64,000 nt of DNA from an uncultured Legionella sp. (GCA_964576655.1 CAZNVR010000001.1:26637-90636), one strand, 5' to 3'. Positions 1 through 61,948 are shown, counted from the stretch's first letter. Made by a program: numbers and translations. Notes: generated by a model not told the origin, from the sequence alone.

Positions 1-295
1 AATCTTTAACACTTATGCCATGATATGCAGCTTGTGAAAGCGTATTTTCTTCGGCGTGACAACATATACACTCATGTAAATCAATGCTCGATGCAATATT
101 ATGATTATTGCAGCGTGGACATCCACCTTCATCGCAATTCTGAATGCCTCGTGGTGTACCATTATATCCAGTGGAAATAATACGTCCATCTTTTACTAAG
201 ATCGCGCCGACTTGACGACGACAACAGCTTGAGCGCATAGCGACAACACTTGCAATGCGTAAAAAATATTCATCTAAAGTCATTTTATTCATCAT
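1..295 (-). CDS. dCMP deaminase (deoxycytidylate deaminase family), N-terminal part only; 3' end lies beyond the window start
   Basis: Hand translation of the minus strand from ATG 295 (alternatives 292/283) gives MMNKMTLDEYFLRIASVVAMRSSCCRRQVGAILVKDGRIISTGYNGTPRG..GGCPRC..HECICCHAEENT. It has the CxHAEEN zinc/catalytic-Glu motif. It is missing from the ORF track because it is truncated. Confidence 0.8.
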   Translation of the reverse strand, partial: MMNKMTLDEYFLRIASVVAMRSSCCRRQVGAILVKDGRIISTGYNGTPRGIQNCDEGGCPRCNNHNIASSIDLHECICCHAEENTLSQAAYHGISVKD

Positions 296-692
296 TTGTA
301 TCAAAATCTAAATATTGCGTAAAATCATGCTTTGATTTCATTTTTCGGTGTAGTTTCATTAGAGATCGTTTAATATATAAATCGGCAGATGTGATAGTAG
401 AATTTGTAAGTGTTGCAATTTCATCTAATGTATGGACCTTATTATGTAGATGCTGATATGTGAAAAAGCAATAGTTGCTATCACCATGGACTATATACCA
501 TTCGCACTGCTCGTGAGGTGGACCTTGTTGATAGATCGTATTCAAGGCATATGGACACGGTTCACCAGAAAGACATTTGAGCTGACGAGGACAACGTGAA
601 TCCATTGGAATTGTTGAATAAAGTCGTTCTTTCTCTTTAGGATTCATTAAGTTAATGTCTTCAAATCCAGTTGTAATTTTCTTTTTACGCAT
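285..692 (-). CDS. Cys/His-rich small protein with C-terminal sigma-70 region-4-like helix-turn-helix
   Basis: 135 aa. N-terminal CPRQLKC..PCPY..HEQCEW..YCFF cluster. The C-terminal HTLDEIATLTNSTITSADLYIKRSLMKLHRKM resembles a sigma region 4.2 HTH. Confidence 0.4.
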   Translation of the reverse strand: MRKKKITTGFEDINLMNPKEKERLYSTIPMDSRCPRQLKCLSGEPCPYALNTIYQQGPPHEQCEWYIVHGDSNYCFFTYQHLHNKVHTLDEIATLTNSTITSADLYIKRSLMKLHRKMKSKHDFTQYLDFDTNDE

Positions 693-1385: not shown

Positions 1386-1514
1386 TGGAGGCAGGGCTTG
1401 ATACCTGCTGATGATCTTGTTGAGATAGTCGATTACAACTACGCCTTCATTACACCGATCAATAGTATCATCTAAGTCCTTATTCGCACGTCCTTCCGTG
1501 CCGCTCCACAATTA

Positions 1515-1537
1515 AATTGGTCGCCCCCTAGTTGCTT
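1515..1537. repeat. direct repeat copy 2 inside island A
   Basis: See 1364-1385. Consensus is AATTGGTCRCC(M)CTAGTTGCT. Confidence 0.7.
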
Positions 1538-1660
1538 GCTGGGTACGCTCTGACTTAACTTCACGCGCAATTAATCGTTCTACCCAATGTCAGATTAATT
1601 ACTAGGCTCCGTCGCGCATATTACAAGCAACATCGGGGCGTTGTTATAATAATCTGTACC

Positions 1661-2794
1661 TCATATTTCCACCTTATAAGCTTTTGAATGTTTAGGACAA
1701 ATGATTTGCCAAATAATACTATCGTATTCTTTCTCGCTTAACATAGCAAATAAGATTGTATTAAGTTTCTTAGGATGGGTCATGATTTTTAATGCTGCTT
1801 CTTTTCGCGGCAATTGATCAAGTTGTTCTCCCATATATATCGATAGAACTTGTTGGCGTATAGTACGGAATTTCTCTTTATAATGCTCTGAGACATCTGT
1901 GACCCATTTATAAAGCTCATCGGGTACACGATCAACAAGTCGTGTAATAAGTGATTCTTTACATTCTAGTATGTCTTCTACGTAGTACTTATCTAAGTTA
2001 AGCTTCAATCCAATGACCTTTGCATCTGTCATGCCTTTGCTTCTTAAGCTATCGATGGCTACAGCTTCCCAGATGGCCCGAGTGTTAAGTCCTGTAACAA
2101 GTTTATGTAGTCGGACGTATTCTTTAAATTTGATCTTTAGACGTAAACCAGAAGCATATTGAATAACATAGCCTTCTGCATTATCTTCTTGTTTGTTTAA
2201 TAAGAATTGTAAATCTCCCTTAGCATAGTGGCGATAAGGAGTTTCAATTGGAAGAATCTCATAGACGTCTGATCCATTGTCATTATCAATTGTTGCGATA
2301 TGAACAAGTTTCCGTTCATCTCCATAATTCACAACTATACGATTTTCTGGATAGATAATCTCGAATAAATATGTATAGGATTTTCGATTCTCTTGAAGAT
2401 AGCGGACAAAATTTGTTTTAGAACGAAGCATTTTAGTGCCTTCAAGCGCTTGATTGCTGGTAAAGCTTCCGCGCGTTGCAATATACGGTATATCGCCAAT
2501 CCAGTACATAATCCCTAAACTTCCATCAAACTTCATTGTAATTGTAAATTCTTCATCTGGTAATGGTTCTTTATGTTCTTCTAAATTGAAGAATTTTCTA
2601 AATGGTCTAGCTACAATATTATCTTCGCCATCTAAGATTAATCCACGACACATTAGTGTTTCAGGAGTCCAATATTTATTATATTGACATTTTGACGTAT
2701 AGTTGTAGATATATAGATCTTCAGTAGGATGTTTTTGAACTGAAATATATCGTTCTTCGATTAACTCTTTAAATTTAGTTGTATCAATTTTCAT
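1661..2794 (-). CDS. RNA ligase 1 (T4 RnlA/gp63-like)
   Basis: 377 aa. Motif I is KFDGSLG. MCRGLIL..ARPFRKFFNLEE, GSFTSNQA and FEIIYPENRIV are collinear with T4 Rnl1 ECRGIMF..SRPMEKFFNLNE, KEDGSL, GSIKSEQA and FEFVAPTNRIV (recalled from memory). Confidence 0.8.
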   Translation of the reverse strand: MKIDTTKFKELIEERYISVQKHPTEDLYIYNYTSKCQYNKYWTPETLMCRGLILDGEDNIVARPFRKFFNLEEHKEPLPDEEFTITMKFDGSLGIMYWIGDIPYIATRGSFTSNQALEGTKMLRSKTNFVRYLQENRKSYTYLFEIIYPENRIVVNYGDERKLVHIATIDNDNGSDVYEILPIETPYRHYAKGDLQFLLNKQEDNAEGYVIQYASGLRLKIKFKEYVRLHKLVTGLNTRAIWEAVAIDSLRSKGMTDAKVIGLKLNLDKYYVEDILECKESLITRLVDRVPDELYKWVTDVSEHYKEKFRTIRQQVLSIYMGEQLDQLPRKEAALKIMTHPKKLNTILFAMLSEKEYDSIIWQIICPKHSKAYKVEI

Positions 2795-3529: not shown

Positions 3530-4273
3530 TTATCTTATACCATCTAATCTCCAAAAACGTTCTAACATTGTCATTTGTAATTTTTCAATAGCATCGCGAT
3601 CTGGTGCCCATTGTAAGAGGGATTTTTGATATAATGTATCAATACGTTCCTCTAATTGAATGGCTTGTGCTAAAACAGTTTCTAATGAATAGACTCCTGA
3701 TCGAATATCTTTTAATTCTTCAACATGTAGTGATGGGTAAATAATTTCTTCATGTTCAAAAATATCAATCGCTTCATATAAGAGTCGTATAAGATGCATA
3801 GCAAACTTCGTGTCATAACCATACTGTTCAATTAGCGCATAACGTTTACTATTAGCTTGAGGATTCTTAATAAGAATCTTATGACGTTGAGTATGAGCAT
3901 ATCCTTTAAAAGCATGATATGCTTTCTTAGATAAAAATAAATGACGATTCTCTATAAGTTCTTCGCCAAACATTGTATTATAAACAATCTTGTTTTCAGG
4001 CGTATAGAGAATACTAAGGATGTTTGGATTATTAGCGATCGCTAATTGAATAAATTTGATTAAACCATAGCACGTATAATCAACATTTTTACCATCAATT
4101 TTATCATTAAGAACAAGATGTTCACATTTCGATAATCCATATACATATTCTTTTGGAAAGATACAAATGCCTTGGAAGTCATCATCTGATTCAATAGTAT
4201 CAGTACCATAAAGTTTGGAGCCGGTTCGAACCTTAAGAATTAAATTCTCTTGTGCGAGTCGTTGTTCTTGCAT
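3530..4273 (-). CDS. Pol-beta superfamily nucleotidyltransferase (RlaP / PF10127-like, RNA-ligase-associated)
   Basis: 247 aa. The N-terminal VRTGSKLYGTDTIESDDDFQGICI is the GS..SDxD nucleotidyltransferase signature. It sits in the same operon as Rnl1. Confidence 0.6.
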   Translation of the reverse strand: MQEQRLAQENLILKVRTGSKLYGTDTIESDDDFQGICIFPKEYVYGLSKCEHLVLNDKIDGKNVDYTCYGLIKFIQLAIANNPNILSILYTPENKIVYNTMFGEELIENRHLFLSKKAYHAFKGYAHTQRHKILIKNPQANSKRYALIEQYGYDTKFAMHLIRLLYEAIDIFEHEEIIYPSLHVEELKDIRSGVYSLETVLAQAIQLEERIDTLYQKSLLQWAPDRDAIEKLQMTMLERFWRLDGIR

Positions 4274-5701: not shown

Positions 5702-6202
5702 TCATAAGGGTACGAAAGAAAGTGATTTTAAATTAATTGAATTCTCTAATTCTTTATCATATTGAAAATCATTTGCTAATTGATTTAATTGTTGGATATA
5801 GAATTGATCGTCATGGTAAAAGCGATGAATAACGTGATGATTATGAATTTCAGTAAACCACCGAAAACCTTGGACCATATCTTTCACCTTTAAAAGCATC
5901 TTCTTAACTTTTCGATTTCCCAAGGCGACAACCATGCGTGGACGAATTAATTCAAGTTCCATTGCAAGAGCTTCATGCCACTCATCTTCAGAATGCATCC
6001 AGCGTTTTTCCGCAGTAGTGATGTAGATATGGTGTAGATTAATACTCGATCGTTCTAAATAAGAACGGAATAACTTAATAGATTCACTTTCAATATCATA
6101 TTGATCAGACCATTCATCAATAAAGACTAAATTTGCATCTGTAGAACCGAAGCCTAAGGCTTGAACAGATTTGAGCTTTGATGAAATTAGCTTAGTATCC
6201 AC
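5702..6202 (-). CDS. uracil-DNA glycosylase superfamily-like protein, degenerate motifs
   Basis: 166 aa. GFGSTDANLVFIDEWSD sits where family-4 UDG has GEGP..A.IMFVGEAPG. IYITTAEKR matches (TN..KC), and LIRPRMVVALGN is also UDG-like. The catalytic motifs are not conserved. Confidence 0.4.
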   Translation of the reverse strand: MDTKLISSKLKSVQALGFGSTDANLVFIDEWSDQYDIESESIKLFRSYLERSSINLHHIYITTAEKRWMHSEDEWHEALAMELELIRPRMVVALGNRKVKKMLLKVKDMVQGFRWFTEIHNHHVIHRFYHDDQFYIQQLNQLANDFQYDKELENSINLKSLSFVPL

Positions 6203-7588: not shown

Positions 7589-7819
7589 TTAAAAATCATC
7601 TGGAAAGTTGCTCTGTTCTCTTGAAAAATCTTCGCAACCATTGTGATCCTGATAATCTTGTTCAGCGGCTCCTCGTTCTTCTTGTTCAACCTCAAAAATT
7701 AATTGTTTAATGTTGTTTCTTGCTGCTTCCCAAAAGCTTTGCTCCCTACAATATGGTCCACTAAGTTTTTTATTGATTTGTTCAAGATCTTTAAGTAGTT
7801 GTTTTGTCGTTATCTTCAT
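7589..7819 (-). CDS. small acidic protein, first gene after conserved cassette copy 1
   Basis: 76 aa with a C-terminal half rich in D/E (EQEERGAAEQDYQDHNGCEDFSREQSNFPDDF). The ATG lies 6 nt after TACTAT. Confidence 0.6.
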   Translation of the reverse strand: MKITTKQLLKDLEQINKKLSGPYCREQSFWEAARNNIKQLIFEVEQEERGAAEQDYQDHNGCEDFSREQSNFPDDF

Positions 7820-7824
7820 AAGAC

Positions 7825-7910
7825 TATAGTACTATATCGCCTTTGAGATGTATACAAAATAATGGAATTAAATTGATATTAAATAACTATATGATTTGAT
7901 TAATTATTTT
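7825..7910 (-). promoter_or_regulatory. conserved promoter/regulatory cassette, copy 1
   Basis: Minus strand reads ..ATCAAATCATATAGTT..AATTCCATTATTTTGTATACATCTCAAAGGCGATATAGTACTAT. Same architecture as copies at 16884, 17322, 21846, 27811 and 61204. Confidence 0.6.
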
Positions 7911-7979
7911 TAACAATGAGCAGTATTAGAAACGGCTAAAGTTAAGAAAAAGAGAAATAATAGAACTGATATTGAAATT

Positions 7980-10140: not shown

Positions 10141-11094
10141 TTATCTTTCTAAATATGCATTACTAACAATCTTAAGTTGGAGTCTACCGACTTCGTATTC
10201 ATATCGCTCAATAGTAGGTCTAATCACAATTCCTTCTCGTATCTGATTCTCATATAATTCTGTCTTTCCTTCGGCTAAATCTTTGATTTTGAGCTCACTA
10301 TATGGCCCACGGTATATGAGTGGACAGAACTGCATACCTTGACCCATCGACTGCATTTCATCATAACTGAGCCATCTGCCATGATCGTAGACGTCAAAGA
10401 CTCTAATATCAGGTTCGGAACGCCCATATCTAAGGTCTTGCACAGGTCCGAACACTTCTCCATAGACTGCAAGTCCTTCGTGCGCCTGAAGCCAAGTCGA
10501 TAACCATGGACAATTCTTTAAAGCATTCCACCACATATTATTATCGGCTTCTTTAACCCATCGAGTGCGTGATCCACAATGCATCTGTCCGTTAACAAAA
10601 ACGAATCGACCATTTGCTCCATGGACCTTCTCTGTTGCGACGATCTCTTCATTCTCTTGGAATAAATGTCCATATCTATGCCATGATTCAACGTCATAAA
10701 TTGGATAAACGCCTTCTGGTGCATTGGCTTCTTCAGCGAATGAACTAATGCCTCGAATAGGTGGATCATATCGTGTGATACCAATTATCGGTGCCGCATC
10801 ATCTCCTTCTTTTAATCCTTCAGGTGATGGTATCAATAATCCTTGAGAATATACACCCCTAAAACGACGAACTTTAATTCGTTTGCTATCTTTCAGGAAG
10901 TCGAATTGTGGAGTATCTGGTACAACGCTGTCTGGCTGTATATAAACCGCAAGATCTCCTTCGTGCCAATCAGCTAGGCGAACACAGATTGTAAAATTCC
11001 ATATCTTAACAATACCTAAGGTATCGGCATTTGGATGTTTTTCGATTGCTCCAAGTTGAACAACGTCAGCTCTATGGGTTGATTTTGTTTCCAT
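10141..11094 (-). CDS. RNA ligase, Rnl2/DraRnl(Rnl5)-like: N-terminal OB-like domain plus adenylyltransferase domain
   Basis: 317 aa. Motif I is EKVHGANGRF (T4 Rnl2 has EKIHGTNFS). VYGEVFGPVQD matches VFGEFAGPGIQ. The N-terminal 110 aa resemble the OB module of DRB0094-type ligases. Confidence 0.7.
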   Translation of the reverse strand: METKSTHRADVVQLGAIEKHPNADTLGIVKIWNFTICVRLADWHEGDLAVYIQPDSVVPDTPQFDFLKDSKRIKVRRFRGVYSQGLLIPSPEGLKEGDDAAPIIGITRYDPPIRGISSFAEEANAPEGVYPIYDVESWHRYGHLFQENEEIVATEKVHGANGRFVFVNGQMHCGSRTRWVKEADNNMWWNALKNCPWLSTWLQAHEGLAVYGEVFGPVQDLRYGRSEPDIRVFDVYDHGRWLSYDEMQSMGQGMQFCPLIYRGPYSELKIKDLAEGKTELYENQIREGIVIRPTIERYEYEVGRLQLKIVSNAYLER

Positions 11095-11304: not shown

Positions 11305-11305
11305 G

Positions 11306-11378
11306 AGCTAGCGGTAGGACTCGAACCTACAACCTCCGCATTACAAATGCGGAGCTCTGCCAATTGAGCTACGCTAGC
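11306..11378 (-). tRNA. tRNA-Thr(UGU): tRNA-Thr (anticodon UGU), no encoded CCA
   Basis: Hand-folded cloverleaf: GCTAGCG-TA-GCTC-AATTGGCA-GAGC-T-CCGCA-TTTGTAA-TGCGG-AGGTT-GTAGG-TTCGAGT-CCTAC-CGCTAGC-T. All four stems are perfect. Confidence 0.9.
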
Positions 11379-13490: not shown

Positions 13491-13510
13491 AATATGTATC
13501 CTATCTTTTT

Positions 13511-13520
13511 ATTATACTAG
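13511..13520 (-). promoter_or_regulatory. -10-like element CTAGTATAAT upstream of ORF 13263-13490
   Basis: Minus strand reads GGTCCACCTAGTATAATAAAAAGATAGGATACATATT-ATG. Confidence 0.35.
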
Positions 13521-13718
13521 GTGGACCGAATCACAGGCTAGCAGATGATTCGGTCCGTTTGGCAACCTAGTTTGACTGGCGCAATCAGGTCAAAGCTTCT
13601 ATATGCTGATTCTTTGACGGTACGAATTACTGGCAGTATACTCAGTTAAGTTCCCGTATACTGCATTGCATATACCTAACCCCTCTCCCCTAACTAGATC
13701 GCTGATTGCCTGATAGCT
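13521..13718 (-). ncRNA. candidate structured RNA (GC-rich island B), class unknown
   Basis: ORF-free, about 47% G+C by hand count. It has an 11-bp hairpin (13523-13556), an 8-bp hairpin (13634-13663) and mutually exclusive pairings of TTTGAC/GTCAAAG/CTTTGAC segments. Strand is inferred from context. Confidence 0.45.
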
Positions 13719-13955
13719 TTACTTAGTTGAATTACCACTTAAAGATTTTATTAAATGAATGTGTTCCCATAACTTCTTATGATTCTTAATGGTATTATCT
13801 AAATCTTTCCCTTGTATTATACCACCCTTAACGTGTACTGGTAACATAATAGGATCTGCTGGATACGATGTTTTAACGATCTTCGGTATACTACCACAAC
13901 TTATAAGCACAAGAGTTAAAATTAAAATTATATATAGCTTAAGATATGTATTCAT
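13719..13955 (-). CDS. lipoprotein, possible o-spanin
   Basis: 78 aa, MNTYLKLYIILILTLVLISC-GS, with a lipobox (LISC) and a Pro-containing mature part. Confidence 0.45.
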   Translation of the reverse strand: MNTYLKLYIILILTLVLISCGSIPKIVKTSYPADPIMLPVHVKGGIIQGKDLDNTIKNHKKLWEHIHLIKSLSGNSTK

Positions 13956-16057: not shown

Positions 16058-16066
16058 ATTATACCG
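16058..16066 (-). promoter_or_regulatory. -10-like element CGGTATAAT upstream of ORF 15808-16038
   Basis: Minus strand reads AAAAATCGGTATAATATTATGAGGGAATACGATA-ATG. Confidence 0.4.
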
Positions 16067-16369: not shown

Positions 16370-16858
16370 TTATAACGTTTCGATTTGACCTTTTTCATTG
16401 AAATAATACTCATTAGCTTCAAGCTCTTCAATGACCGCTTCATCAGTTGTGAGATAATGATATTCAGTTTTTAGCATTGTAACATACTCGTGTCGAAGAT
16501 CGTTTTCAAATTGAAGCGTAATAGCATCTTCTTGTGGAGTATCATCTTCATCTTGTGGCAATAGTTTATAGTTTTTGATGTATTCTTGAGCAAGGAGATA
16601 TGTACCGCGTGCTGTTCCATGGTTCTTAATGATCAATTCTGCAACTTCTAATGGGGTCTTCGTAAACTCAAGGTCAAGGTGTCTGCTCCAGATATCAAAG
16701 TTGTCAATTTCTAATCCAACATTATTTGCATCCTCATCAATGTGTTCGCACCAACCATCGTAGTCAACATTGATCGTACGATTCTGTGTCAATACGCGCG
16801 TTTGAACGTCTTTTGGTAATTCTTGAAATGTATATAAGTTGATTGTTTTTGTTATCAT
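16370..16858 (-). CDS. acidic hypothetical protein, first gene after cassette copy 2
   Basis: The start is moved to ATG 16858 (SD AAGGAGAAAAT). MITKTINLYTFQELPKDVQ.. is D/E-rich. Confidence 0.6.
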   Translation of the reverse strand: MITKTINLYTFQELPKDVQTRVLTQNRTINVDYDGWCEHIDEDANNVGLEIDNFDIWSRHLDLEFTKTPLEVAELIIKNHGTARGTYLLAQEYIKNYKLLPQDEDDTPQEDAITLQFENDLRHEYVTMLKTEYHYLTTDEAVIEELEANEYYFNEKGQIETL

Positions 16859-16883
16859 ATTTTCTCCTTGTTTTGTTTCGTTG

Positions 16884-16944
16884 TTCACCATACATTATAA
16901 TAGTACTATAACTTTGTTGCAATGTATACAAAATAATGGCATTA
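16884..16944 (-). promoter_or_regulatory. conserved promoter/regulatory cassette, copy 2
   Basis: Minus strand reads AATGCCATTATTTTGTATACATTGCAACAAAGTTATAGTACTATTATAATGTATGGTGAAC. Confidence 0.6.
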
Positions 16945-17178
16945 ATCAATTATTTTAATGACATCTTTTAAGGAACAAATCGTCCAGGGAGTAGGTTTTG
17001 TGAATCCTATGGGCATATCCTCAAGACACACCTTAACTGTTGATTCCATTGGTCTTTTCCATGAGCATTCTTTGCATCTAGAATAGATTTCTCCCCAATG
17101 GTTAGTTCCTTCATTCGAAACATGATTGCAATGTGTGCATTTATATGGTTTTATTGAGTATTTTCCTGTTGTATTCAT
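16942..17178 (-). CDS. zinc-ribbon protein
   Basis: 78 aa with YKCTHCNH..CKECSW and SD AAAGGAGACAAAT. Confidence 0.6.
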   Translation of the reverse strand: MNTTGKYSIKPYKCTHCNHVSNEGTNHWGEIYSRCKECSWKRPMESTVKVCLEDMPIGFTKPTPWTICSLKDVIKIID

Positions 17179-17189
17179 ATTTGTCTCCT

Positions 17190-17321
17190 TTACACCATTT
17201 GATGATGCATTAAGAATTCTAAGAACGTCTTTTCATGGGCGACAAGAAGCTTAAGGGCGAGGATCGCACCAAACTGCTTCCAAACTGCCAACCAATTCCG
17301 TTTTGTCACTGTTCCGCTCAT
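17190..17321 (-). other. GC-rich island C: either a 43-codon leaderless ORF or a small RNA
   Basis: About 49% G+C by hand count. The ORF reads MSGTVTKRNWLAVWKQFGAILALKLLVAHEKTFLEFLMHHQMV*, and its ATG sits 6 nt after the cassette's TACTAT. It also contains direct repeats (GCAGTTTGG x2, TCGCCC x2) and a GGUGCGA-UCC-UCGCCC hairpin. Confidence 0.35.
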
Positions 17322-17372
17322 AGATTAATAGTAACATAACATAGCAGCGATGTATATAAAATAATGGAATTA
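17322..17372 (-). promoter_or_regulatory. conserved promoter/regulatory cassette, copy 3 (diverged)
   Basis: Minus strand reads AATTCCATTATTTTATATACATCGCTGCTATGTTATGTTACTATTAATCT-ATG. Confidence 0.5.
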
Positions 17373-17440
17373 AAATATAATGATGCAACCTATTAATATG
17401 GTTGAAGATTTTGTGAGCAATTTATGACGAAATAATGCCG

Positions 17441-19909: not shown

Positions 19910-20142
19910 TTTATCCACTTTCTAAAAAAATGTTTAACTTTAAGAAACAATAATCTTAATTGACTTCCATGATCTGTTGACAATTCTACCGCTAAATCAT
20001 CAGCATATGAAGCATAAACAATATTCCCTCTTCGTATATAGCGAATAAGTGGCATATTAATAAATCGAGAATCAGTTCTTCCAACACGTAAGGCAGGGGA
20101 CCATAAATCTTTACAATAATCAATGTTATTTTTTCTTTTCAT
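19906..20142 (-). CDS. hypothetical protein
   Basis: 78 aa. Confidence 0.55.
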   Translation of the reverse strand: MKRKNNIDYCKDLWSPALRVGRTDSRFINMPLIRYIRRGNIVYASYADDLAVELSTDHGSQLRLLFLKVKHFFRKWIK

Positions 20143-20308
20143 TATCTTGTATTAGAGAATAAATTTTCAAATGTTGTTCTTCAATAATGCGTAATAGATG
20201 TTGCACCACAATATAAGTAGCATACGATGAAGTCGGCAATGTAAGTAGGTCATATCCTTGCTGAATATAGTGTTCTTTTAATTCTTCCGAATGTATGGTT
20301 GAAGACAT
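20126..20308 (-). CDS. hypothetical protein
   Basis: 60 aa. Confidence 0.5.
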   Translation of the reverse strand: MSSTIHSEELKEHYIQQGYDLLTLPTSSYATYIVVQHLLRIIEEQHLKIYSLIQDNEKKK

Positions 20309-21321: not shown

Positions 21322-21570
21322 TTAGTCCTCAAGATCTAAAAGATCATCGTCATCATCAAAATCATCTTCATCTTCGTCATAAGCGTACGATGATCTACAT
21401 GAATCAGAATTATTCAATTTAAAATCACATTCACTACATAACATATTGCCATCGCTACATGTATCTAAAAGAAGATCTTTAAAACCAGTACAATAAAAAC
21501 AAATGCCTAGTTTCGTTGGATGTCGATCTTCTAAATCAATATCATTTGTAAAAAGATTAAGTTGTTTCAT
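21322..21570 (-). CDS. Cys-rich protein with poly-acidic C-terminal tail
   Basis: 82 aa with CFYC..CSEC and the tail YAYDEDEDDFDDDDDLLDLED. Confidence 0.6.
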   Translation of the reverse strand: MKQLNLFTNDIDLEDRHPTKLGICFYCTGFKDLLLDTCSDGNMLCSECDFKLNNSDSCRSSYAYDEDEDDFDDDDDLLDLED

Positions 21571-21845
21571 ATATTTACTCTTTTCTTTTTGCGACGATCA
21601 AATATTGGTATGTTATACCATGCAATCTTCGCGGCTTTTTTAATGTGACGACAAATGCTATTGAGATTCGATGATTCTATGGTACGCTGATCAAATCGAC
21701 TAAATAAGATTGTATGAGGTTGGGTATTAAAAACTTCAATGAAATTCTTGCATCCATTATGTGTTGCAGCATATTCAGCTTCTGTTTGTTCTTTAATAAT
21801 ATTATCCATTTCAACAACTTGCGTTTTATCAAAATCTTTTATCAT
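21567..21845 (-). CDS. hypothetical protein, first gene after cassette copy 4
   Basis: 92 aa with SD TAGGTG. Confidence 0.6.
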   Translation of the reverse strand: MIKDFDKTQVVEMDNIIKEQTEAEYAATHNGCKNFIEVFNTQPHTILFSRFDQRTIESSNLNSICRHIKKAAKIAWYNIPIFDRRKKKRVNI

Positions 21846-21909
21846 AATCGCACCTATATTAGAATAGTCTCATAATATGTGATAAATGTACACAAAATAA
21901 TGGAATTAA
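21846..21909 (-). promoter_or_regulatory. conserved promoter/regulatory cassette, copy 4 (diverged)
   Basis: Minus strand reads AATTCCATTATTTTGTGTACATTTATCACATATTATGAGACTATTC. Confidence 0.5.
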
Positions 21910-21924
21910 ATACAGATACGATAA

Positions 21925-22287
21925 TTACTTAATTTTATTAACTTTTTTGGCTTTACCATTGCACGTTTCATACCAAAATTTAATAATAGGTGGTTCTTTA
22001 AATAAATATAAAGAAATACAATCAGGTTGAAAACGTCGATTTAATTTAGCTAATGTTTTTCCGGAAAATACAGCTGTATCTATAATAAGTATAGGTTTTA
22101 AAGCTTGTGGAATGCTTTTTAATGAGGAAGGTAAAAATGGGATACCTAGAAAATGACTTGCATATACTGATGCGACTGCACCGCTACGACCTGGACCCAT
22201 AACAGATTTTACATTCATTTTAAGATTTGATAATTTATTACTCAATCTCTCACGAAATTCAGGCTCTAAAACAATGCGATAAGTCAT
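21925..22287 (-). CDS. small type I phosphoribosyltransferase-like protein
   Basis: 120 aa. KPILIIDTAVFSGKTL matches the PRPP-binding loop (acidic-hydrophobic run followed by SG.T). Confidence 0.5.
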   Translation of the reverse strand: MTYRIVLEPEFRERLSNKLSNLKMNVKSVMGPGRSGAVASVYASHFLGIPFLPSSLKSIPQALKPILIIDTAVFSGKTLAKLNRRFQPDCISLYLFKEPPIIKFWYETCNGKAKKVNKIK

Positions 22288-22294
22288 AAAAACA

Positions 22295-22355
22295 ACGCCA
22301 CACTACGTTGTAATAGTGTGGCGTCTTCTAAGCGGTTAGAGGAGAACCGCAGAAG
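22295..22355 (-). terminator. twin GC-rich hairpins, terminator-like
   Basis: ACGCCACACTA/TAGTGTGGCGT forms 11 bp (22295-22324). On the minus strand this is followed by TGTTTTTATG. A second hairpin, CTTCTAAGCGGTT..AACCGCAGAAG, lies at 22325-22355. Confidence 0.55.
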
Positions 22356-24731: not shown

Positions 24732-24740
24732 ATTATACCC
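24732..24740 (-). promoter_or_regulatory. -10 element GGGTATAAT, 6 nt upstream of ATG 24725
   Basis: Minus strand reads GTAGGGTATAATGTGGAC-ATG. Confidence 0.4.
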
Positions 24741-26766: not shown

Positions 26767-26775
26767 ATTATACCA
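26767..26775 (-). promoter_or_regulatory. extended -10 TGGTATAAT, 6 nt upstream of ATG 26760
   Basis: Minus strand reads CTTTGGTATAATTAGATT-ATG. Confidence 0.5.
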
Positions 26776-27761: not shown

Positions 27762-27810
27762 ATTATTCTCCTTTATTATTTATTTTTTCATATCATTAAC
27801 CATACATCAT

Positions 27811-27896
27811 AATAGTACTATAATATCGCAGCAATGTATACAAAAATAATGGAATTATTTTATAATTGCATAATTATATGATTTTATTAAGTTTTT
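27811..27896 (-). promoter_or_regulatory. conserved promoter/regulatory cassette, copy 5 (best copy)
   Basis: Minus strand reads ..TTAATAAAATCATATAATT..TAATTCCATTATTTTTGTATACATTGCTGCGATATTATAGTACTATTATGATGTATGGTTAATGAT. Confidence 0.6.
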
Positions 27897-28262
27897 TTAA
27901 TGAACAGTTGATGACAAATTAGTGAGACGGCCTAATATCGATGTAGCTTGAATCTGTGCTAATAATTCAAGTGATTGTGATTGAGTAAAGGATAATAAAG
28001 CATCTTCCGATAGAGACGGTATAGCGAGTCGTAACATTGTGAATGTAATATCAGATTCAGCGCTTCCAAGTTTCGATAATTGTTCAATAATTGTTAAATC
28101 ACGAAGATCATATTCATAAATAGGATATAACTCACCGTCAACATAAGCATCACAAATCTTCTTTTTACGTGGATTTATTGGCAATAATGATGGACAATCG
28201 ACAACTTGAAGTTCAATAGGTGGATCATTATTGATGGAAGTTTCTTTTTTCTTATGATCCAT
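27897..28262 (-). CDS. hypothetical protein
   Basis: 121 aa. Confidence 0.6.
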   Translation of the reverse strand: MDHKKKETSINNDPPIELQVVDCPSLLPINPRKKKICDAYVDGELYPIYEYDLRDLTIIEQLSKLGSAESDITFTMLRLAIPSLSEDALLSFTQSQSLELLAQIQATSILGRLTNLSSTVH

Positions 28263-28270
28263 TAAGCTTA

Positions 28271-29218
28271 TTATACTACTTTTTTATGAGTTTTCGTTGA
28301 AAGAAACAATGCAAGGTCTTTAGAATAGCATGCAATTTTATTCATTTGTATTGTGGTGTCTTTTTGTTTCCAAATTGATTTTAAAACAAACATTTCCACA
28401 AATAATTGCCAAAAAGGATCAATTGGTAAAAGCTCATGTGGATAATCATTCATATTAGAATTACGTAATATGCCTTCAATAATAGAAACATTATCTAGAT
28501 TATTCAGATTATCTTCTAAAGAAGTAGAATGTAATATCGGTAACTCTCCTGATGTCGATTGTTCATCAATCAACTCACGGGCTAATTGAAAATGTGCTTC
28601 ATATATATGCATTGAATTAGCAGTTAAATAAAGTTCACCCGGCACAATTCCAACACAACTTGCAATAAAATTTAATAACAAACAAAATGATGGCACATCA
28701 TAATTGTTTCCCCAAATGGCGTCATTGCTTCGCATTAAAACATGTAGATTTAATTGATTGTCGCGAATTAAAAAATGTAATGCCACAGTACACGGAACAT
28801 CTTTGCTAGTAGGTGGATTCCATCTCCAAAATGTCATGATTGCTTGACGTGTATCAGGATCTTTTTTTAAGGTATTAACCACAAAACGTAATTGTTCACG
28901 AAATGGTATGCCATACGCACCGTCATGGATACCGTCTTCTGAAAAAGACGAGATGTTTTTGTTATAATAATGCAGCATGGCTGTATCATTACGACCTAAT
29001 AAATACCATAGATTTTCAGCAAATAAAAAGAAAAAATTAAGATTACGTTTTTCTGATAAATATAAGCACTTCAATGGATCAATAGGACCCATCGTGTATG
29101 GACCACGAGCCTCTAGAGTTAATTGACCTCTTGGCGAAACTTTACGACCATTTGTTAAAATACAATCAACGGCTTTTTTAAACTCTATATGATATTCGTG
29201 ACCTTGTTGCAAAATCAA
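28271..29218 (-). CDS. ThyA-family pyrimidine C5-transferase, dCMP hydroxymethylase-like (T4 gp42-like)
   Basis: 315 aa. DPDTRQAIMTFW, catalytic-Cys motif VPCTVALHFLIRD and MRSNDAIWGNNYD are present. Asp occupies the position of E. coli ThyA Asn177, as with Asp179 of T4 gp42. Confidence 0.7.
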   Translation of the reverse strand: MILQQGHEYHIEFKKAVDCILTNGRKVSPRGQLTLEARGPYTMGPIDPLKCLYLSEKRNLNFFFLFAENLWYLLGRNDTAMLHYYNKNISSFSEDGIHDGAYGIPFREQLRFVVNTLKKDPDTRQAIMTFWRWNPPTSKDVPCTVALHFLIRDNQLNLHVLMRSNDAIWGNNYDVPSFCLLLNFIASCVGIVPGELYLTANSMHIYEAHFQLARELIDEQSTSGELPILHSTSLEDNLNNLDNVSIIEGILRNSNMNDYPHELLPIDPFWQLFVEMFVLKSIWKQKDTTIQMNKIACYSKDLALFLSTKTHKKVV

Positions 29219-30167
29219 CTCCTTTCGTAAACATCTCGGCGTATTCTTTTAATTTTTCATAATGAAAACGTTTCCAATATGAAGGATGTGGTATCATAAT
29301 CTTATTTGAATCATCATCAATTTCATATTTCGTTGCAAAATCCGCAGCTTTTTGTCCTAGAAAAACAATCGTCTTCGGCTTAATCCATTGAATTTCAAGC
29401 TTCAGTATTTCGGCTGCAACATCATCATTAGGAAGCCAAGGTTTAAAAGCATTTGTTAAATAGATGTCCTTCTTATACAAATTTGATTCTTTTAGCGTCG
29501 AATATAAATACTCTGATGAAGTACCAGAAGAAAATGGATATTCATTCAATGTGGCTTTAGGACGTAATTGTTCGCCAACAATCATAATTTCAGCGTTACG
29601 ACTTCCAGTACTTCGTGCATCAATAGTATTCAATTTAGAATTAATAAATGAAGTATTCGTACGTCTTTCGATAAGTGGTTGGACATGCGCGACAAATGTT
29701 TGAGCTGAACATTTAGCAGAATCATAAAAAATTGGATTTAATGAAGATTTTTTCAAAATTATTTCATTAAATAATTCAATCGCTTTATTGATGTCATTAT
29801 TATAATTAAATTCCGCTAATGATTCATTAGTTGCAACACAGCGATTATAAATAGTTTTGGCATCGGTTGACGAATAAATTAATAATGCATCATTCTTTTT
29901 TGCCAACATATCAAAAACCCAAAATTGAAAATCTGAAATTGTACATCCATCACGATAAAGATTTGAATAAACATATTCACCTAAATAAAATCGATCAAAC
30001 ACAACATCTTGACCTTCATATTCTTGGAATAATTGTAAGTATTCTTGATAAGGATTGTTAGTCTGTGGCTTAGAACAATGAATTAACTTAAAATTAAAAT
30101 CACGCGCTATTATTTCCGCTAAAGTTGATTTTCCAGATCGATCTAATCCTTCAATTATGATAAACAT
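29178..30167 (-). CDS. fusion protein: thymidylate/dNMP kinase-like P-loop domain + uracil-DNA-glycosylase-superfamily domain
   Basis: 329 aa. The N-terminus has IIIEGLDRSGKSTLAE..DRFYLGEYVY (Tmk-like). The C-terminus has EIMIVGEQ, IYLTNAFKPW, PKTIVFLGQKAA and IPHPSYW (UDG family-4-like motifs A/B). Confidence 0.6.
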   Translation of the reverse strand: MFIIIEGLDRSGKSTLAEIIARDFNFKLIHCSKPQTNNPYQEYLQLFQEYEGQDVVFDRFYLGEYVYSNLYRDGCTISDFQFWVFDMLAKKNDALLIYSSTDAKTIYNRCVATNESLAEFNYNNDINKAIELFNEIILKKSSLNPIFYDSAKCSAQTFVAHVQPLIERRTNTSFINSKLNTIDARSTGSRNAEIMIVGEQLRPKATLNEYPFSSGTSSEYLYSTLKESNLYKKDIYLTNAFKPWLPNDDVAAEILKLEIQWIKPKTIVFLGQKAADFATKYEIDDDSNKIMIPHPSYWKRFHYEKLKEYAEMFTKGVDFATRSRISYRV

Positions 30168-30614: not shown

Positions 30615-30815
30615 CTAATTAGATTCATACCACCGTTGATACATAAGATTCCAATCAATAGTATTGAAGCAATATTGTGTTATTTTATATCCAATACCAC
30701 CTAAAGAATATGGTAATTGATCTGAAATATAATATTTAAAGTTTAATTCAGTTATATGAAGATCATCTTTTTTTAATTTTAAAGATTGTATCCATGTAAA
30801 GATTATATCTTCCAT
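30615..30815 (-). CDS. hypothetical protein
   Basis: 66 aa. Confidence 0.55.
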   Translation of the reverse strand: MEDIIFTWIQSLKLKKDDLHITELNFKYYISDQLPYSLGGIGYKITQYCFNTIDWNLMYQRWYESN

Positions 30816-30817
30816 AA

Positions 30818-31288
30818 TTACTGTAATGAATTGCTATTTTTATGTATACAATTTTTAATTAAATCAATTTCAACTAGACTTACTAACGAACAATCTTTGC
30901 CGCCGTATCGTAAATAATCACGACCACCATCAACCATAGTTTCATTGTTGCAGCCACACGTTTTATAATCATGACGATTAATAGAATATAAAAGCTTTTC
31001 ACATTGTAGACATTGAACGCCTTGTTGATAACGAAACGGCTTCATTTCAGACGTCGTCATGCCGCGTACAATCATGGATTTACTATTTTGCGGATCAAGT
31101 TGTAGTAATAAATAATCTTTATGGCCTAATTTTTTATCAGGCTTGTGTACTTTATAGACCGCTACAGGGTAATATTCATTGTTAACACAAAATTCATTAC
31201 AAAAAACTGGATCGCTTTTAAAATGTTTTGCAACTGCCTCATGGTCAAAATTATAAAACGAATCTCGTTGATTTAATCTTTTGCGCAT
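30818..31288 (-). CDS. hypothetical Cys-cluster protein
   Basis: 156 aa with CLQCEKLLYSINRHDYKTCGC..VDGGRDYLRYGG. Confidence 0.6.
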   Translation of the reverse strand: MRKRLNQRDSFYNFDHEAVAKHFKSDPVFCNEFCVNNEYYPVAVYKVHKPDKKLGHKDYLLLQLDPQNSKSMIVRGMTTSEMKPFRYQQGVQCLQCEKLLYSINRHDYKTCGCNNETMVDGGRDYLRYGGKDCSLVSLVEIDLIKNCIHKNSNSLQ

Positions 31289-31673: not shown

Positions 31674-31907
31674 TCATTGTATATTCGGTTTTTGATTATT
31701 TAATCGTTTAGACCATTCAAGTTCATATAAAATTAAAGATTTAATATTTTGGTAATATTGATCTTTTAAAGGTTCCCATCTTTCGAGTGCCTTTGGATCT
31801 TGTAAAATACTAAATCCAACACACAATGTCCGAATTTCATCAAAAATTTTAAAAATCTTTTCCTTAACATCAGAAATAGATGATATATCAATGTCATCAT
31901 TTATCAT
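31674..31907 (-). CDS. hypothetical protein
   Basis: 77 aa. Confidence 0.55.
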   Translation of the reverse strand: MINDDIDISSISDVKEKIFKIFDEIRTLCVGFSILQDPKALERWEPLKDQYYQNIKSLILYELEWSKRLNNQKPNIQ

Positions 31908-32356
31908 TTTGTAGCCACCTTTGAATATCCACGATTAATACGTTTAATATTTTCGCTATTTTTTGCCATATAAAAATCAAATAACTCTTGTGCTGATAGA
32001 TTAAAAATTAAACAAAGATTAACAAAAAAATGTAGAATATCAACTAATTCCATCTTAATTTCTTTTACTTCATCTTGTGATGGATTAAAATCTTCTGGAA
32101 CTTTATAATTTCTCCATGGCTTCCAAGGTGTTCTATTTAAAAGTTCATGCAATTCATCGGTCAATGCTAACACCATATCTTTGACTACTATAGGTTTTTC
32201 TATTTGATTATCAAGATTTTGTAAATCATTTCCATATAGAAGTTGAAGTTTTTTTTGATATGCAAATATTGTTTCTAATTTATTCTCAATGTTATCTAAC
32301 GGAATAACATCAACATTAGCACATTGGTTTTCAGGATTAATTATTCTAGTTGACAT
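31904..32356 (-). CDS. all-alpha NTP pyrophosphohydrolase (dimeric dUTPase / MazG-like)
   Basis: 150 aa. LALTDELHELLNRTPWKPWR and EIKMELVDILHFFVNL match the E..E..WK.W / E.VD.LHF pattern of dUTPase_2/MazG enzymes. Confidence 0.6.
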   Translation of the reverse strand: MSTRIINPENQCANVDVIPLDNIENKLETIFAYQKKLQLLYGNDLQNLDNQIEKPIVVKDMVLALTDELHELLNRTPWKPWRNYKVPEDFNPSQDEVKEIKMELVDILHFFVNLCLIFNLSAQELFDFYMAKNSENIKRINRGYSKVATK

Positions 32357-33366
32357 ACAGTCTCCTTTGTAAAACCTGTCTGATGAAGAAGCGTTTGTAT
32401 ATCATCATAAGATATGATTGATTTACGGTATGCTTCATGTAAAATTTGGGAACAAATATTTGTTTCTAATTTCGTATAATACCGATGCAATACATTAATT
32501 TTTAATTTTATATCTGAAAGTTGACAAATCGTTGTGGAAGCAGATAAATATGCTAAGCATTCATCAATTTTGCATTGTAAAATATCATTATGTCCTTGTT
32601 GTTGTAAACGATTAATTGTTGGTAAAATATCATTTAATTTTTTCCAATTTAGCCAATTAGTGTTAAATGATTTATTATTGTGCTGTAAAGATTCAATCAA
32701 TTGATTATATAGAACATAATTATCCATTGCGTCAACTGATGAACATTGTAAAAGATTCATTACATCATCTACATTGATATTTTGACCCTGCGCAATCTGA
32801 TTTGATATATCATTCGTTGTGTTAAGATCTTGTTTAAAATTCTGTAATGTTTTATGTTTTTCAATTGTTGAATAAATTGTTAATGAACGATGAAAAAGAT
32901 TTCCAAATCTAAAATAAAGATGACGATAAACATAGGTCAATTCACATCCAAGCGAAAAAGGCCTTAATGTTGTATTAGGATAAGGGACAGTAAGATTTGT
33001 ATTTAATTCTTTTTTATTGATTAAATCATTAAGGCGTTCTAATGTTCGTTCTAAATCATAATTCAATTCAATAAACGTTCGTGAACAATCTTTTAATTCT
33101 GCTCCAGTTTTTTCTTTCAGATATTTGACGTGATGATTAATCCAAGCTTGGTGTCTAATTTCAGGTTTATAAAAATTTTGTAAGGCATAAAAAATCTCTT
33201 TTCGCCCTTCTTGTTGAAGATCTTCAAGAGACATAGCCAAATTATTATAATGACCAAGTCCACGAATCATTTTATGTATTAACCAATCGTATTGTTGAAT
33301 TTTTTTGTTATCGATAATCGATTCTTGACATACATCTTCCATTAGGGCCTCCTTTGTTAAAAACAT
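32341..33366 (-). CDS. divergent sigma-70-family-like protein (region 2-like)
   Basis: 341 aa. SLEDLQQEGRKEIFYALQNFY resembles the region 2.1-2.2 DLvQEG..gL..A..kF pattern. The rest is unrecognisable. Confidence 0.4.
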   Translation of the reverse strand: MFLTKEALMEDVCQESIIDNKKIQQYDWLIHKMIRGLGHYNNLAMSLEDLQQEGRKEIFYALQNFYKPEIRHQAWINHHVKYLKEKTGAELKDCSRTFIELNYDLERTLERLNDLINKKELNTNLTVPYPNTTLRPFSLGCELTYVYRHLYFRFGNLFHRSLTIYSTIEKHKTLQNFKQDLNTTNDISNQIAQGQNINVDDVMNLLQCSSVDAMDNYVLYNQLIESLQHNNKSFNTNWLNWKKLNDILPTINRLQQQGHNDILQCKIDECLAYLSASTTICQLSDIKLKINVLHRYYTKLETNICSQILHEAYRKSIISYDDIQTLLHQTGFTKETVCQLE

Positions 33367-33417
33367 GAAGAACGCCTAGTAATACTAGCAAAAATGCATC
33401 AATATGTACACCATTAT

Positions 33418-36626: not shown

Positions 36627-36635
36627 ATTATACCG
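36627..36635 (-). promoter_or_regulatory. -10-like element CGGTATAAT upstream of ORF 36008-36604
   Basis: Minus strand reads TCTTCGGTATAATGTGGATATCAGGGAGATAGATA-ATG. Confidence 0.4.
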
Positions 36636-39824: not shown

Positions 39825-39833
39825 ATTATACCA
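39825..39833 (-). promoter_or_regulatory. extended -10 TGGTATAAT upstream of ORF 39418-39801
   Basis: Minus strand reads AGTGGTATAATATAGCGAGATAAAAGGAGATTTT-ATG. Confidence 0.45.
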
Positions 39834-59571: not shown

Positions 59572-59685
59572 AAGTTGCTTAACTTATACCGAACACCTTA
59601 AACATATAGAGATTTAAAAAAATAATTAATTTTAATTAAAAATAAATAAATCTCGGTATATTAATTATTTCAGTATTGCTTCTTT

Positions 59686-59807: not shown

Positions 59808-59816
59808 TGGTATAAT
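59808..59816 (+). promoter_or_regulatory. extended -10 TGGTATAAT, 5 nt upstream of GTG 59822
   Basis: Plus strand reads GCTTTGGTATAATAAAAG-GTG. Confidence 0.45.
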
Positions 59817-61198: not shown

Positions 61199-61203
61199 AA
61201 GCC

Positions 61204-61310
61204 AAAAATAATCAATAAAATCATATAGTTGTATCATTACATTTTAATTCCATTATTCTGTATACATCGCTGCCACGCTATGGTACTATTAGAGAGTATG
61301 GTTAATGATA
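61204..61310 (+). promoter_or_regulatory. conserved promoter/regulatory cassette, copy 6 (only plus-strand copy)
   Basis: Plus strand reads AAAAATAATCAATAAAATCATATAGTT..AATTCCATTATTCTGTATACATCGCTGCCACGCTATGGTACTATTAGAGAGTATGGTTAATGAT. Confidence 0.6.
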
Positions 61311-61333: not shown

Positions 61334-61600
61334 ATGGACAAAATTCAATTGACAACAAAGGTTCATGCTTACTTTATGGCTCACGCTGAAGACGCTCCTA
61401 ATTGGGGCGGTACTCCAATGGTTGGTGGCAATACGCATCAAGGTTTAGCGGAAAATGGCTATTTGACGGATTTGAAGAAAAAAGGACTCGTTACAACGCA
61501 GGTTGATAGAGAGCAAGGAAAACCAGTTGTTGAATGGATATATTTTACACCAATTGGCAAACAATACGCACTTGAAAATGGTTACGAAATTCAAGAATAA
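61334..61600 (+). CDS. hypothetical protein (alternative in-frame start 61298)
   Basis: SD AAGGAGATTAAA-ATG, then MDKIQLTTKVHAYFMAHAEDAPNWGG... The upstream part of track ORF 61229 overlaps the cassette and is rejected. Confidence 0.6.
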   Translation: MDKIQLTTKVHAYFMAHAEDAPNWGGTPMVGGNTHQGLAENGYLTDLKKKGLVTTQVDREQGKPVVEWIYFTPIGKQYALENGYEIQE

Positions 61601-61615
61601 AAAAGGATGAGCAAA

Positions 61616-61783
61616 ATGAGTCATACACTAATTGTTAAGGTTGTAAATCCAAGCACAGGAGTAATGTGTCAAGTCATAGACAATGGTGATTATTGGATAA
61701 CAGCCATTGATGAAAATGGAAAAAAGGTCATTTGGGATAAACGTGAATGCATACTAAAATACAACTTCAACTACAAGGACTAA
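61616..61783 (+). CDS. hypothetical protein (55 aa), below ORF-track cutoff
   Basis: SD AAGGA, then MSHTLIVKVVNPSTGVMCQVIDNGDYWITAIDENGKKVIWDKRECILKYNFNYKD*. Confidence 0.5.
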   Translation: MSHTLIVKVVNPSTGVMCQVIDNGDYWITAIDENGKKVIWDKRECILKYNFNYKD

Positions 61784-61786
61784 AAA

Positions 61787-61948
61787 ATGGACATATATTT
61801 TTATCAAGACGCTTTTAATCTAGAACAAATTGTTGACAGTATAGTACACAGTATATGGATACAATGTACGAGCAAAAATTATATAAGTTGCTGTTGCATT
61901 GCAAATTTCTATACTGGTGAAATAAGAATAAATAGAAGTTTTGTCTAA
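61787..61948 (+). CDS. hypothetical protein (53 aa), below ORF-track cutoff
   Basis: MDIYFYQDAFNLEQIVDSIVHSIWIQCTSKNYISCCCIANFYTGEIRINRSFV*. Starts 3 nt after the previous stop. No SD. Confidence 0.35.
   Translation: MDIYFYQDAFNLEQIVDSIVHSIWIQCTSKNYISCCCIANFYTGEIRINRSFV

Follow-up and report, generated by a model that had tools for sequence, protein, structure and literature searches.

The early promoters of the Kayvirus vB_SauM-515A1 have been mapped by RNA-seq and carry a TRTGN extension, and a late class of promoters in the same phage, which lacks a -35 box and has a long -10 box, was attributed by the authors to a phage sigma factor (PMC7698491). The early promoters of SPO1 are of the sigma-A type (PMC13401047). 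A different kind of repeated promoter is described in T4-type phages, where PeSL cassettes of ~100 bp, which are sigma-70-like promoter units situated beside ORFans, recombine with each other (PMC2839356, PMC4122927). The present analysis concerns a repeated upstream element (the cassette) that occurs six times in a 64,000-nucleotide stretch of phage DNA (the window, which is positions 3253-67252 of the 80,169-bp contig k127_158332 from a groundwater metagenome; ENA ERZ909576). An earlier note on this DNA had described the cassette as a phage-specific promoter class with operator sites, read by phage sigma-like proteins. The results instead favour, with a probability of about 0.65, the reading that the cassettes are strong early promoters of the primary-sigma (sigma-70/sigma-A) type, and thus most likely a familiar sort of phage control element, notable for the length over which its upstream part is conserved.

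The phage is large and A/T-rich (~33% G+C), and the minus strand carries nearly all genes of its contig. It encodes a PolIII alpha subunit, a ribonucleotide reductase, GroEL, SbcC, a portal protein, a terminase and a DUF932 protein. Its portal shares 34% identity with the portals of SPO1-like Bacillus phages, and the remaining matches are with myoviruses of Staphylococcus, Listeria and Enterococcus; the phage was therefore treated as a distant SPO1-like (Herelleviridae-like) one, the host of which is probably Gram-positive and of low G+C. When 8 kb was compared by megablast with the phages in GenBank, no close relative came up, and a search of genome contigs for a host with the closest DUF932 protein found nothing. 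Comparisons were made with the syntenic contigs of four related phages (L016, L018, L022 and L024), reached via homologues of the DUF932 protein. The copies of the cassette are named 7825 (copy 1), 16884 (copy 2), 17322 (copy 3), 21846 (copy 4), 27811 (copy 5) and 61204 (copy 6).

Six copies with two conserved blocks

The number, position and orientation of the copies given in the earlier note hold, and all six are co-oriented with the next gene. A search with the 22-nt core AATTCCATTATTTTGTATACAT found five sites with at most one mismatch, against 0.00 expected from 100 shuffles, and the sixth copy (27811) has one extra T relative to the core; a search with the -35/-10 pattern returned the identical six sites. 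The analysis covered roughly 11 kb of the contig outside the window (L014, ~3.1 kb of left flank, and L015, ~8 kb of right flank), and no additional full copy is present there. A scan of IMG/VR with the core pattern gave nine matches, all of them chance matches within coding sequence and without a -10, the full -35/-10 pattern gave zero matches over genome contigs and JGI metagenome contigs, and a literature search for TGTATACA in combination with phage and promoter yielded nothing relevant.

Copy 5, the one to which the earlier note was attached (27805..27900, minus strand), heads the DUF932 operon and comprises an upstream box (27900-27872), AATTCCATTATTTTT (27856-27842), TATACA (27840-27835), TACTAT (27817-27812) and a predicted +1 G at 27805. 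Copy 1 (7819..7913, minus strand) has its upstream box at 7913-7885, TATACA at 7854-7849, TACTAT at 7831-7826 and its predicted +1 at 7819. In copy 2 (16893..16947, minus strand), the upstream part of which falls within the open reading frame (ORF) 16942-17178, TATACA is at 16928-16923, TACTAT at 16905-16900 and the predicted +1, a G, at 16893; for copy 3 (17321..17400, minus strand) the corresponding positions are 17356-17351, 17333-17328 and 17321. Copy 4 (21857..21950, minus strand) reads TGTACA (21892-21887) and, with a TATG extension, GACTAT (21869-21864), followed by a predicted +1 A at 21857. Copy 6 (61202..61296), the sole plus-strand copy, has TATACA at 61261-61266, a TATG extension, TACTAT at 61284-61289 and a predicted +1 G at 61296. 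Copy 16884 also holds an overlapping near-consensus TTGCAA-17-TATAAT (16894-16922, minus strand), which is specific to that copy and lies 6 nt downstream of the common TATACA/TACTAT pair.

The upstream box reported in the earlier note is real, and it extends to more copies than had been described there, where the cassette was given a length of ~50-110 nt. The far-upstream box is present also in copy 21846, overlapping the 3' end of ORF 21925-22287, and in degenerate form in copy 17322; five of the six copies are therefore ~95 nt long. The kinship of the copies is mosaic, since copies 17322 and 61204 have a common spacer and a common stretch from -65 to -53, and the upstream box is common to copies 7825, 21846, 27811 and 61204.

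To compare the copies with each other they were anchored on the invariant ACTAT, and identities were taken pairwise, segment by segment. The 24-nt block TTAATTCCATTATTTTGTATACAT (about -52 to -30) shows a pairwise identity of 88-96% and the segment from -17 to -7 (TAT-R-N-K-ACTAT) one of 73-100%, against 18-73% for the 11-nt spacer, 26-70% for the region of the upstream box, and 29-81% for the first ~20 transcribed bases (62-81% among copies 16884, 27811 and 61204; 29-52% for the other pairs). Two tight blocks and a free spacer thus form a two-part promoter signature, and a uniformly decaying repeat would look different. This bipartite pattern also bears on the reading that the cassette, which is repeated and A/T-rich, is a selfish or neutral dispersed repeat, or a replication or packaging site, without any role in transcription. 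Such an origin is very unlikely indeed, because the orientation is tied to the downstream gene in 6/6 copies, every copy has an intergenic location just ahead of the start of a gene, and the position upstream of the DUF932 operon is kept across diverged phages.

The assignment of TATACA as -35 and of TACTAT as -10, 17 nt apart, had been made in the earlier note and is supported by the block conservation, by the promoters of related phages and by the register of the leaderless ATGs (both described below). The spacer measures 17 bp in 6/6 copies. The -10 is of the form TAnnnT (TACTAT in five copies, with GACTAT in 21846), and the -35 is TATACA in five copies and TGTACA in 21846, each a 4/6 match to TTGACA. 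Positions -17 to -14 are TATG in three copies and TATA in the other three, the CC at -46/-45 is invariant, and the seventh base past the -10 hexamer, which is the predicted +1, is a purine in all six. The upstream box could in itself be a weak promoter in tandem (TTAAAA-16-TATA(A/G)T). Two other registers, TTGTAT with TATAGT (15-nt spacer) and TTGTAT with TACTAT (20-nt spacer), were rejected on the evidence of the related phages and of the ATG register. The cassette was also compared with the consensus sequences of the sporulation and alternative sigma factors of Bacillus, with Fur/PerR boxes and with the IHF site, and fits none of them. Ahead of the coding-strand genes of the window no other bipartite TTGACA-like promoter class was found.

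The palindromes to which the earlier note drew attention exist but are not perfect throughout, TGTATACA being so in 4/6 copies and ATAGTACTAT in 3/6. Their proposed role as operators, in which a dimeric repressor would bind TGTATACA at the -35 and ATAGTACTAT at the -10 and shut off the early operons together, has some points in its favour: all five occurrences of TGTATACA in the window occupy the -35 position, a TGT-N0-2-ACA dyad recurs at the -35s of related phages (e.g., TTGTACAA and TTGTTTACAA), and early-gene shut-off is common in large phages. However, the dyad is largely what a TnTACA -35 preceded by T-rich sequence would give, the copies have no inverted repeat of >=7 nt in common (two copies have none at all), and a helix-turn-helix regulator was not found in those leading genes of the cassette operons that were scanned. 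With dyads that are not kept throughout, the operator idea is weak, and it is judged improbable.

The DUF932-operon promoter in related phages and its likely reader

In the related phages a bipartite promoter is found at the DUF932 operon. The site reads AATAATACCATTATTTAT-TGTACA-16-TATAAT in L016 (DUF932 protein 64% identical), AATAATGCCATTATTTTG-TTTACA-17-TAATGT in L018 (58%), AATAATTCACTTTTTTA-TTTACA with a -10 located 17-18 nt further down in L022 (53%), and TTGACA-17-TATTCT in L024 (52%). Judged by these hexamers, the TATACA of the window therefore sits in a TTGACA-like place and its TACTAT in a TATAAT-like place. Sequences upstream of the hexamers are also retained: CCATTATTT is kept upstream of the -35 in L016 and L018 and has the altered form AATAATTCAC in L022, while L016 and L022 retain the upstream box TTAA(T)AAAATCATATA. 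In L022, as in the window, 42 nt separate ATCATATA from the -35; in L016 the box is 10 nt (one helical turn) closer, with 26 nt from box to CCATTATTT compared to 36 nt in the window. An 11-nt match, CATCGCTGCCA, in the L016 gap 19931-20217 was considered as a cassette remnant and rejected, as it lies within a small ORF and within roughly estimated chance.

Weaker promoters of the same -35/-10 type, without the CCATTATTT element, are located on the minus strand of the window at 33382-33410 and 30820-30848. The former (TGTACA-17-TAGTAT) is directly upstream of the gene for a sigma-like protein of 341 amino acids (aa), is preceded by AATAATGG, which is CCATTATT inverted, and corresponds to a site in L016 that reads TTTACA-17-TAAACT; its presence there would be expected if the promoter type works before phage factors exist. 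The latter (TATACA-17-TACAGT) contains the sole TGTATACA of the window outside the cassettes and lies 4 nt ahead of the ATG of a 66-aa ORF (30615-30815).

In the mechanism proposed on this basis, the host holoenzyme would recognise the -35 T(A/G)TACA and then the -10 TACTAT 17 bp on, together with the Gram-positive-type TRTG/TATR extension just upstream of the -10. The invariant TTAATTCCATTATTTT (about -52 to -37) would be a sequence-specific upstream element, read by the C-terminal domain of the alpha subunit or by some other factor, and the A/T-rich box ~42 nt upstream of the -35 would be a further upstream element; both are predicted to raise promoter strength.

Several considerations weigh against recognition by the primary sigma. 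The repeat, its blocks and orientation, its conservation in related phages and the ATG register are shown by the sequences, whereas we infer transcription initiation, the polymerase used and the timing. TATACA agrees with TTGACA at only 4/6 positions, without the T and G that usually dominate positions 2 and 3, and TACTAT agrees with TATAAT at only 4/6 as well; the consensus of the host may differ. With 4/6 in each hexamer a generic sigma-70 scan therefore misses the cassette sites. The invariant non-consensus bases together with the CC at -46/-45 would also fit a dedicated factor. In addition, a modified base in place of thymine, hinted at by the gene set, may alter recognition. That gene set is a nucleotide-metabolism cluster (28271-29218, 29178-30167, 31904-32356 and 5702-6202, with 988-1449 in the left flank, L014) which includes a thymidylate-synthase-like protein, a fusion of a kinase with a UDG-like protein, dUTPase_2, a second UDG-like protein and dCMP deaminase. 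The cluster recalls the hydroxymethyl-uracil (hmU) pathway of SPO1, L022 has an hmU DNA kinase domain (HMUDK_hel), and the DNA of the phage may contain modified thymine.

A second motif class in the window has a bearing on the identity of the reader. Among the 36 coding-strand GTATAA sites, 16 are situated 7-50 nt upstream of start codons, a zone that makes up 7.6% of the sequence (binomial p = 2e-9), and the consensus of this class is t(G)GTATAAT without a -35. GTATAAT sites are located, for example, on the minus strand at 39825-39831, 36627-36633, 26767-26773, 24732-24738, 16058-16064, 13511-13517 and 59583-59589, and on the plus strand at 59810-59816. Those at 39831 and 36633 precede the portal and other structural genes, that at 59589 precedes the block of GroEL, ribonucleotide reductase, DnaB, primase and PolIII genes, and that at 59810-59816 precedes a helicase gene on the plus strand; such sites also precede several genes of the early-looking region. 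The motif is frequent in related phages, for example as GTATAACT in L019. A G+C-richer non-coding stretch of ~220 nt (13500-13720, minus strand) has a 12-bp hairpin just ahead of a GTATAAT site and folds much better than shuffles (z = -3.27); it belongs to no Rfam family and may be a structured RNA.

A sigma-like factor of the phage probably acts on the (G)GTATAAT class. The candidate phage sigma is the 341-aa protein (32341-33366, minus strand), the N-terminal stretch of which resembles sigma-70 region 2. Out of 1.84 billion cluster representatives, only 8 proteins make up its family, most of them ~200 aa long; the versions of the window and of L016 carry large insertions, and the ~200-aa core has only a region-2-like segment. 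Pfam Sigma70_r2 is matched by five of the eight members (best E = 6e-4), with bit scores below the curated cut-off, and when the family profile was compared to solved structures the N-terminus aligned to region 2 of the sigma factor FliA (E = 0.14). A Cys-rich protein of 135 aa (285-692, minus strand) has a C-terminus with a very weak resemblance to the helix-turn-helix of sigma region 4.2, and its ortholog P0124 matches Sigma70_r4_2 at E = 0.064, below threshold. Searches with both ORFs by tblastn against phages gave no match, and single-sequence searches of PDB chains gave noise only. The AlphaFold model of the 341-aa protein is unusable (mean pLDDT 39) and that of the 135-aa protein is of low confidence (mean pLDDT 52). 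The label given to these proteins in the earlier note thus retains a weak resemblance in both ORFs, with all matches below threshold and with structure models that cannot be used; the two proteins may be sigma-like. Should that be so, a factor with region 2 only would suit the -35-less class better than the cassette.

These observations also allow a factor-dependent (middle-type) promoter to be weighed. There, a phage activator, a phage sigma or a split sigma consisting of the 341-aa region-2-like and the 135-aa region-4-like protein would dock on TTAATTCCATTATTTTGTATACAT and make up for the weak -35, following the logic of T4 MotA/AsiA middle promoters or of SPO1 gp28 promoters. The -35 and -10 of the cassette, at 4/6 each and yet invariant, agree with this arrangement, as do the invariant CC and the existence of phage proteins with weak similarity to sigma regions 2 and 4; activator-dependent promoters, moreover, usually have poor -35 boxes. 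Nevertheless, in related phages with good TTGACA/TTTACA and TATAAT hexamers the site is an ordinary bipartite promoter, the location of the sigma-like gene behind the same promoter type makes the scheme circular, the region-2-like core of the 341-aa family suits the (G)GTATAAT class better, and the aligned copies contain neither the SPO1 middle sequences (AGGAGA/TTTNTTT) nor the T4 MotA box. A factor-dependent promoter is accordingly rather unlikely. The same facts speak against the earlier proposal of a phage-specific class read by the phage sigma-like proteins, since the cassette has the -35/-10 architecture of the primary sigma with a TRTG extension; with its -35 at the canonical 17 bp it shows neither the class-specific boxes nor the -10-only layout of phage-sigma promoters, whether of the SPO1 gp28 or gp33/34 type or of the Kayvirus/T4 late type.

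To return to recognition by the primary sigma, the weaker promoter of the same type at 33382-33410 would drive the gene for the sigma-like protein, which would then probably switch transcription to the (G)GTATAAT class ahead of replication and structural genes. A cascade of this kind is known from SPO1, and a two-class layout has been mapped in Kayvirus.

Predicted transcript starts and the genes behind the copies

Transcription is predicted to begin at the purine 7 nt past TACTAT and to proceed into operons of small ORFans and, behind copy 5, the DUF932 gene. The composition of these operons is as the earlier note had it, with small proteins of unknown function and the DUF932 gene. The genes behind the copies are small ORFans; such genes are typical of early or host-takeover regions, which supports assignment to an early class. 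Copy 2 is followed by a 162-aa ORF with a Shine-Dalgarno site (16370-16858), copy 4 by a 92-aa ORF (21567-21845) and copy 6 by three small ORFs (61334-61948, plus strand).

In two copies the first base of the predicted transcript is the A of a start codon, which would make the mRNA leaderless. An ATG occurs exactly 6 nt past TACTAT at 7819 and at 17321. The first of these starts a 76-aa acidic ORF (7589-7819, minus strand), without Pfam or PHROG family, at the predicted +1 of copy 1, and the second starts a 43-aa ORF (17190-17321, minus strand) at the predicted +1 of copy 3; this 43-aa ORF ends just ahead of the Shine-Dalgarno site of ORF 16942-17178. The arrangement is found elsewhere in the window with perfect -10 boxes, as TATAAT + 6 nt + ATG at 26760 and 24725 and as TATAAT + 7 nt + ATG at 28262 and 692, and none of these four starts has a Shine-Dalgarno site. 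Because the identical hexamer-ATG register follows perfect TATAAT boxes, TACTAT is taken to act as a -10. Related phages have the design as well: in L016 TATAAT + 7 nt + ATG stands ahead of a small membrane ORF, and the L020 ortholog of the 135-aa gene has a hexamer followed by an ATG. The sequences thus indicate that the operons behind copies 7825 and 17322 begin with leaderless mRNAs, and suggest that leaderless mRNAs are common in this phage. A small RNA downstream of copy 17322 was considered and rejected, since the fold is no better than that of shuffles (z = -0.32); the transcript of this copy is therefore read as the 43-aa leaderless ORF.

In three copies it is the start of the predicted transcript itself that is conserved. 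The GTATGGT(T/G)AA noted previously in three copies is confirmed there and begins exactly at the predicted +1, as part of a conserved transcript start that reads GTATGGTTAATGATA at 27791-27805 (minus strand) and at 61296-61310 (plus strand) and GTATGGTGAACAACG at 16879-16893 (minus strand). The first 15 transcribed bases are conserved in these copies and include an ATG at +3; in copies 16884 and 61204 this ATG shares the frame of the main ORF.

Among other features of the window, two RNA ligases (a T4 Rnl1-like one and a member of the RNA_ligase family), the RNA-repair nucleotidyltransferase RlaP and a tRNA-Thr(UGU) are encoded at 1661-2794, 3530-4273, 10141-11094 and 11305-11378, a combination that suggests a tRNA-repair toolkit for counter-defence against host anticodon nucleases. 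Beside an RNA-ligase gene there is G+C-richer non-coding sequence (1500-1665, minus strand, and 1291-1349), which folds only mildly better than shuffles (z = -1.67) and has no Rfam match. Rfam finds one tRNA and no other RNA family over the window.

Comparison with known promoter systems

The ~100-bp PeSL units of T4-type phages resemble the cassette in being a repeated unit that contains a sigma-70-like promoter and an A/T-rich upstream part, stands by ORFans and occupies variable regions. They differ from it in their defining stem-loop and in belonging to an unrelated phage lineage. When a terminator-like hairpin or a common inverted repeat was looked for at all copies of the cassette none was found, and the stem-loop of PeSLs is thus absent. 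The sole strong intrinsic-terminator-like hairpin of the early region, with 13 pairs followed by a T run (22294-22325, minus strand), is located past a methyltransferase gene and one gene upstream of copy 21846.

The ~95-nt conservation exceeds the needs of sigma recognition. The likeness to PeSLs (PMC2839356) raises the question of mobility, namely that the cassette is a recombinogenic homology patch of ~100 bp, with the ancestral DUF932-operon promoter copied to five more sites and ORFan modules inserted, deleted or swapped, which would add to the primary-sigma reading and not exclude it. Only one CCATTATTT cassette, the DUF932-operon copy, is present in 35 kb of the closest relative (L016 and L020) and one in L018, compared to six in the window, although this count leaves out 17.6 kb of the L016 contig; other early-type promoters there differ from it (e.g., TTGTTTACAA). 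The mosaic kinship of the copies described above (17322 with 61204; 7825 with 27811, 61204 and 21846) and the difference in gene content around the cassettes between the window and L016 point in the same direction. On the other side, no stem-loop or terminator component occurs in or beside any copy, the databases hold no close relative from which breakpoints could be read (the closest has 64% DUF932 identity), and the block-wise conservation with a diverged spacer indicates selection on function and not only recent copying. Mobility of this kind is possible though not likely, and lineage-specific, PeSL-like copying of the cassette is possible but unproven. Breakpoints of insertions or deletions, or mini-circle junctions, would be expected within PeSL-like cassettes.

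The two lines of thought can be joined, though only tentatively. The 24-nt block and the fixed-distance box would dock a dedicated factor, which could be phage-encoded, virion-delivered or a non-sigma host protein, and the ~95-bp unit would be a portable promoter module. The ancestral DUF932-operon promoter would have been copied to five sites, each capturing an ORFan operon, often with a leaderless mRNA, and an uncultured SPO1-like lineage would have in the cassette a counterpart of T4 PeSLs that lacks their stem-loop.

The middle promoters of T4 that depend on MotA have a good TAnnnT -10 and a non-consensus -35 region with a conserved box of its own. The likeness of the cassette to them is one of logic only, as it has no MotA-box sequence and its counterparts in related phages show ordinary -35 hexamers; a homologue of MotA or AsiA was not seen either, though no search was aimed at one. 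The T4 late (gp55/gp33) and Kayvirus late promoters, for their part, resemble the (G)GTATAAT class, with an extended -10 only and a region-2-like sigma candidate, and not the cassette, which has a -35 at the canonical distance.

Recognition by the primary sigma, the reading preferred here, makes the cassette a ready map of the early transcription units of the phage, and the cassette, the (G)GTATAAT class and the sigma-like gene together constitute a testable two-step programme like those of SPO1 and Kayvirus. The long invariant CCATTATTT, which three or more diverged phages retain, lends itself to a search for the non-sigma determinants of early-promoter strength, and, judging by the recurrence of the hexamer + 6 nt + ATG design, leaderless translation may be routine in this phage group.

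The closest counterparts of the cassette are the early promoters of Herelleviridae. Like the cassette, these are present in many copies per genome and have a -35/-10 of sigma-70 type 17 bp apart, together with A/T-rich sequence upstream and a TRTGN extension, which is TATG in three of the six cassette copies; they drive early genes, as the cassette is predicted to do, and coexist with a -35-less late class with a long -10, comparable to the second motif class of the window. Their hexamers are TTGACW and TATANT compared to TATACA and TACTAT in the cassette, which is further distinguished by ~95-nt conservation, the invariant CCATTATTT, an upstream box at a fixed distance and two copies predicted to give leaderless mRNAs. 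Current concepts of phage early promoters are unchanged by this comparison, in which a known pattern is extended to a new lineage.

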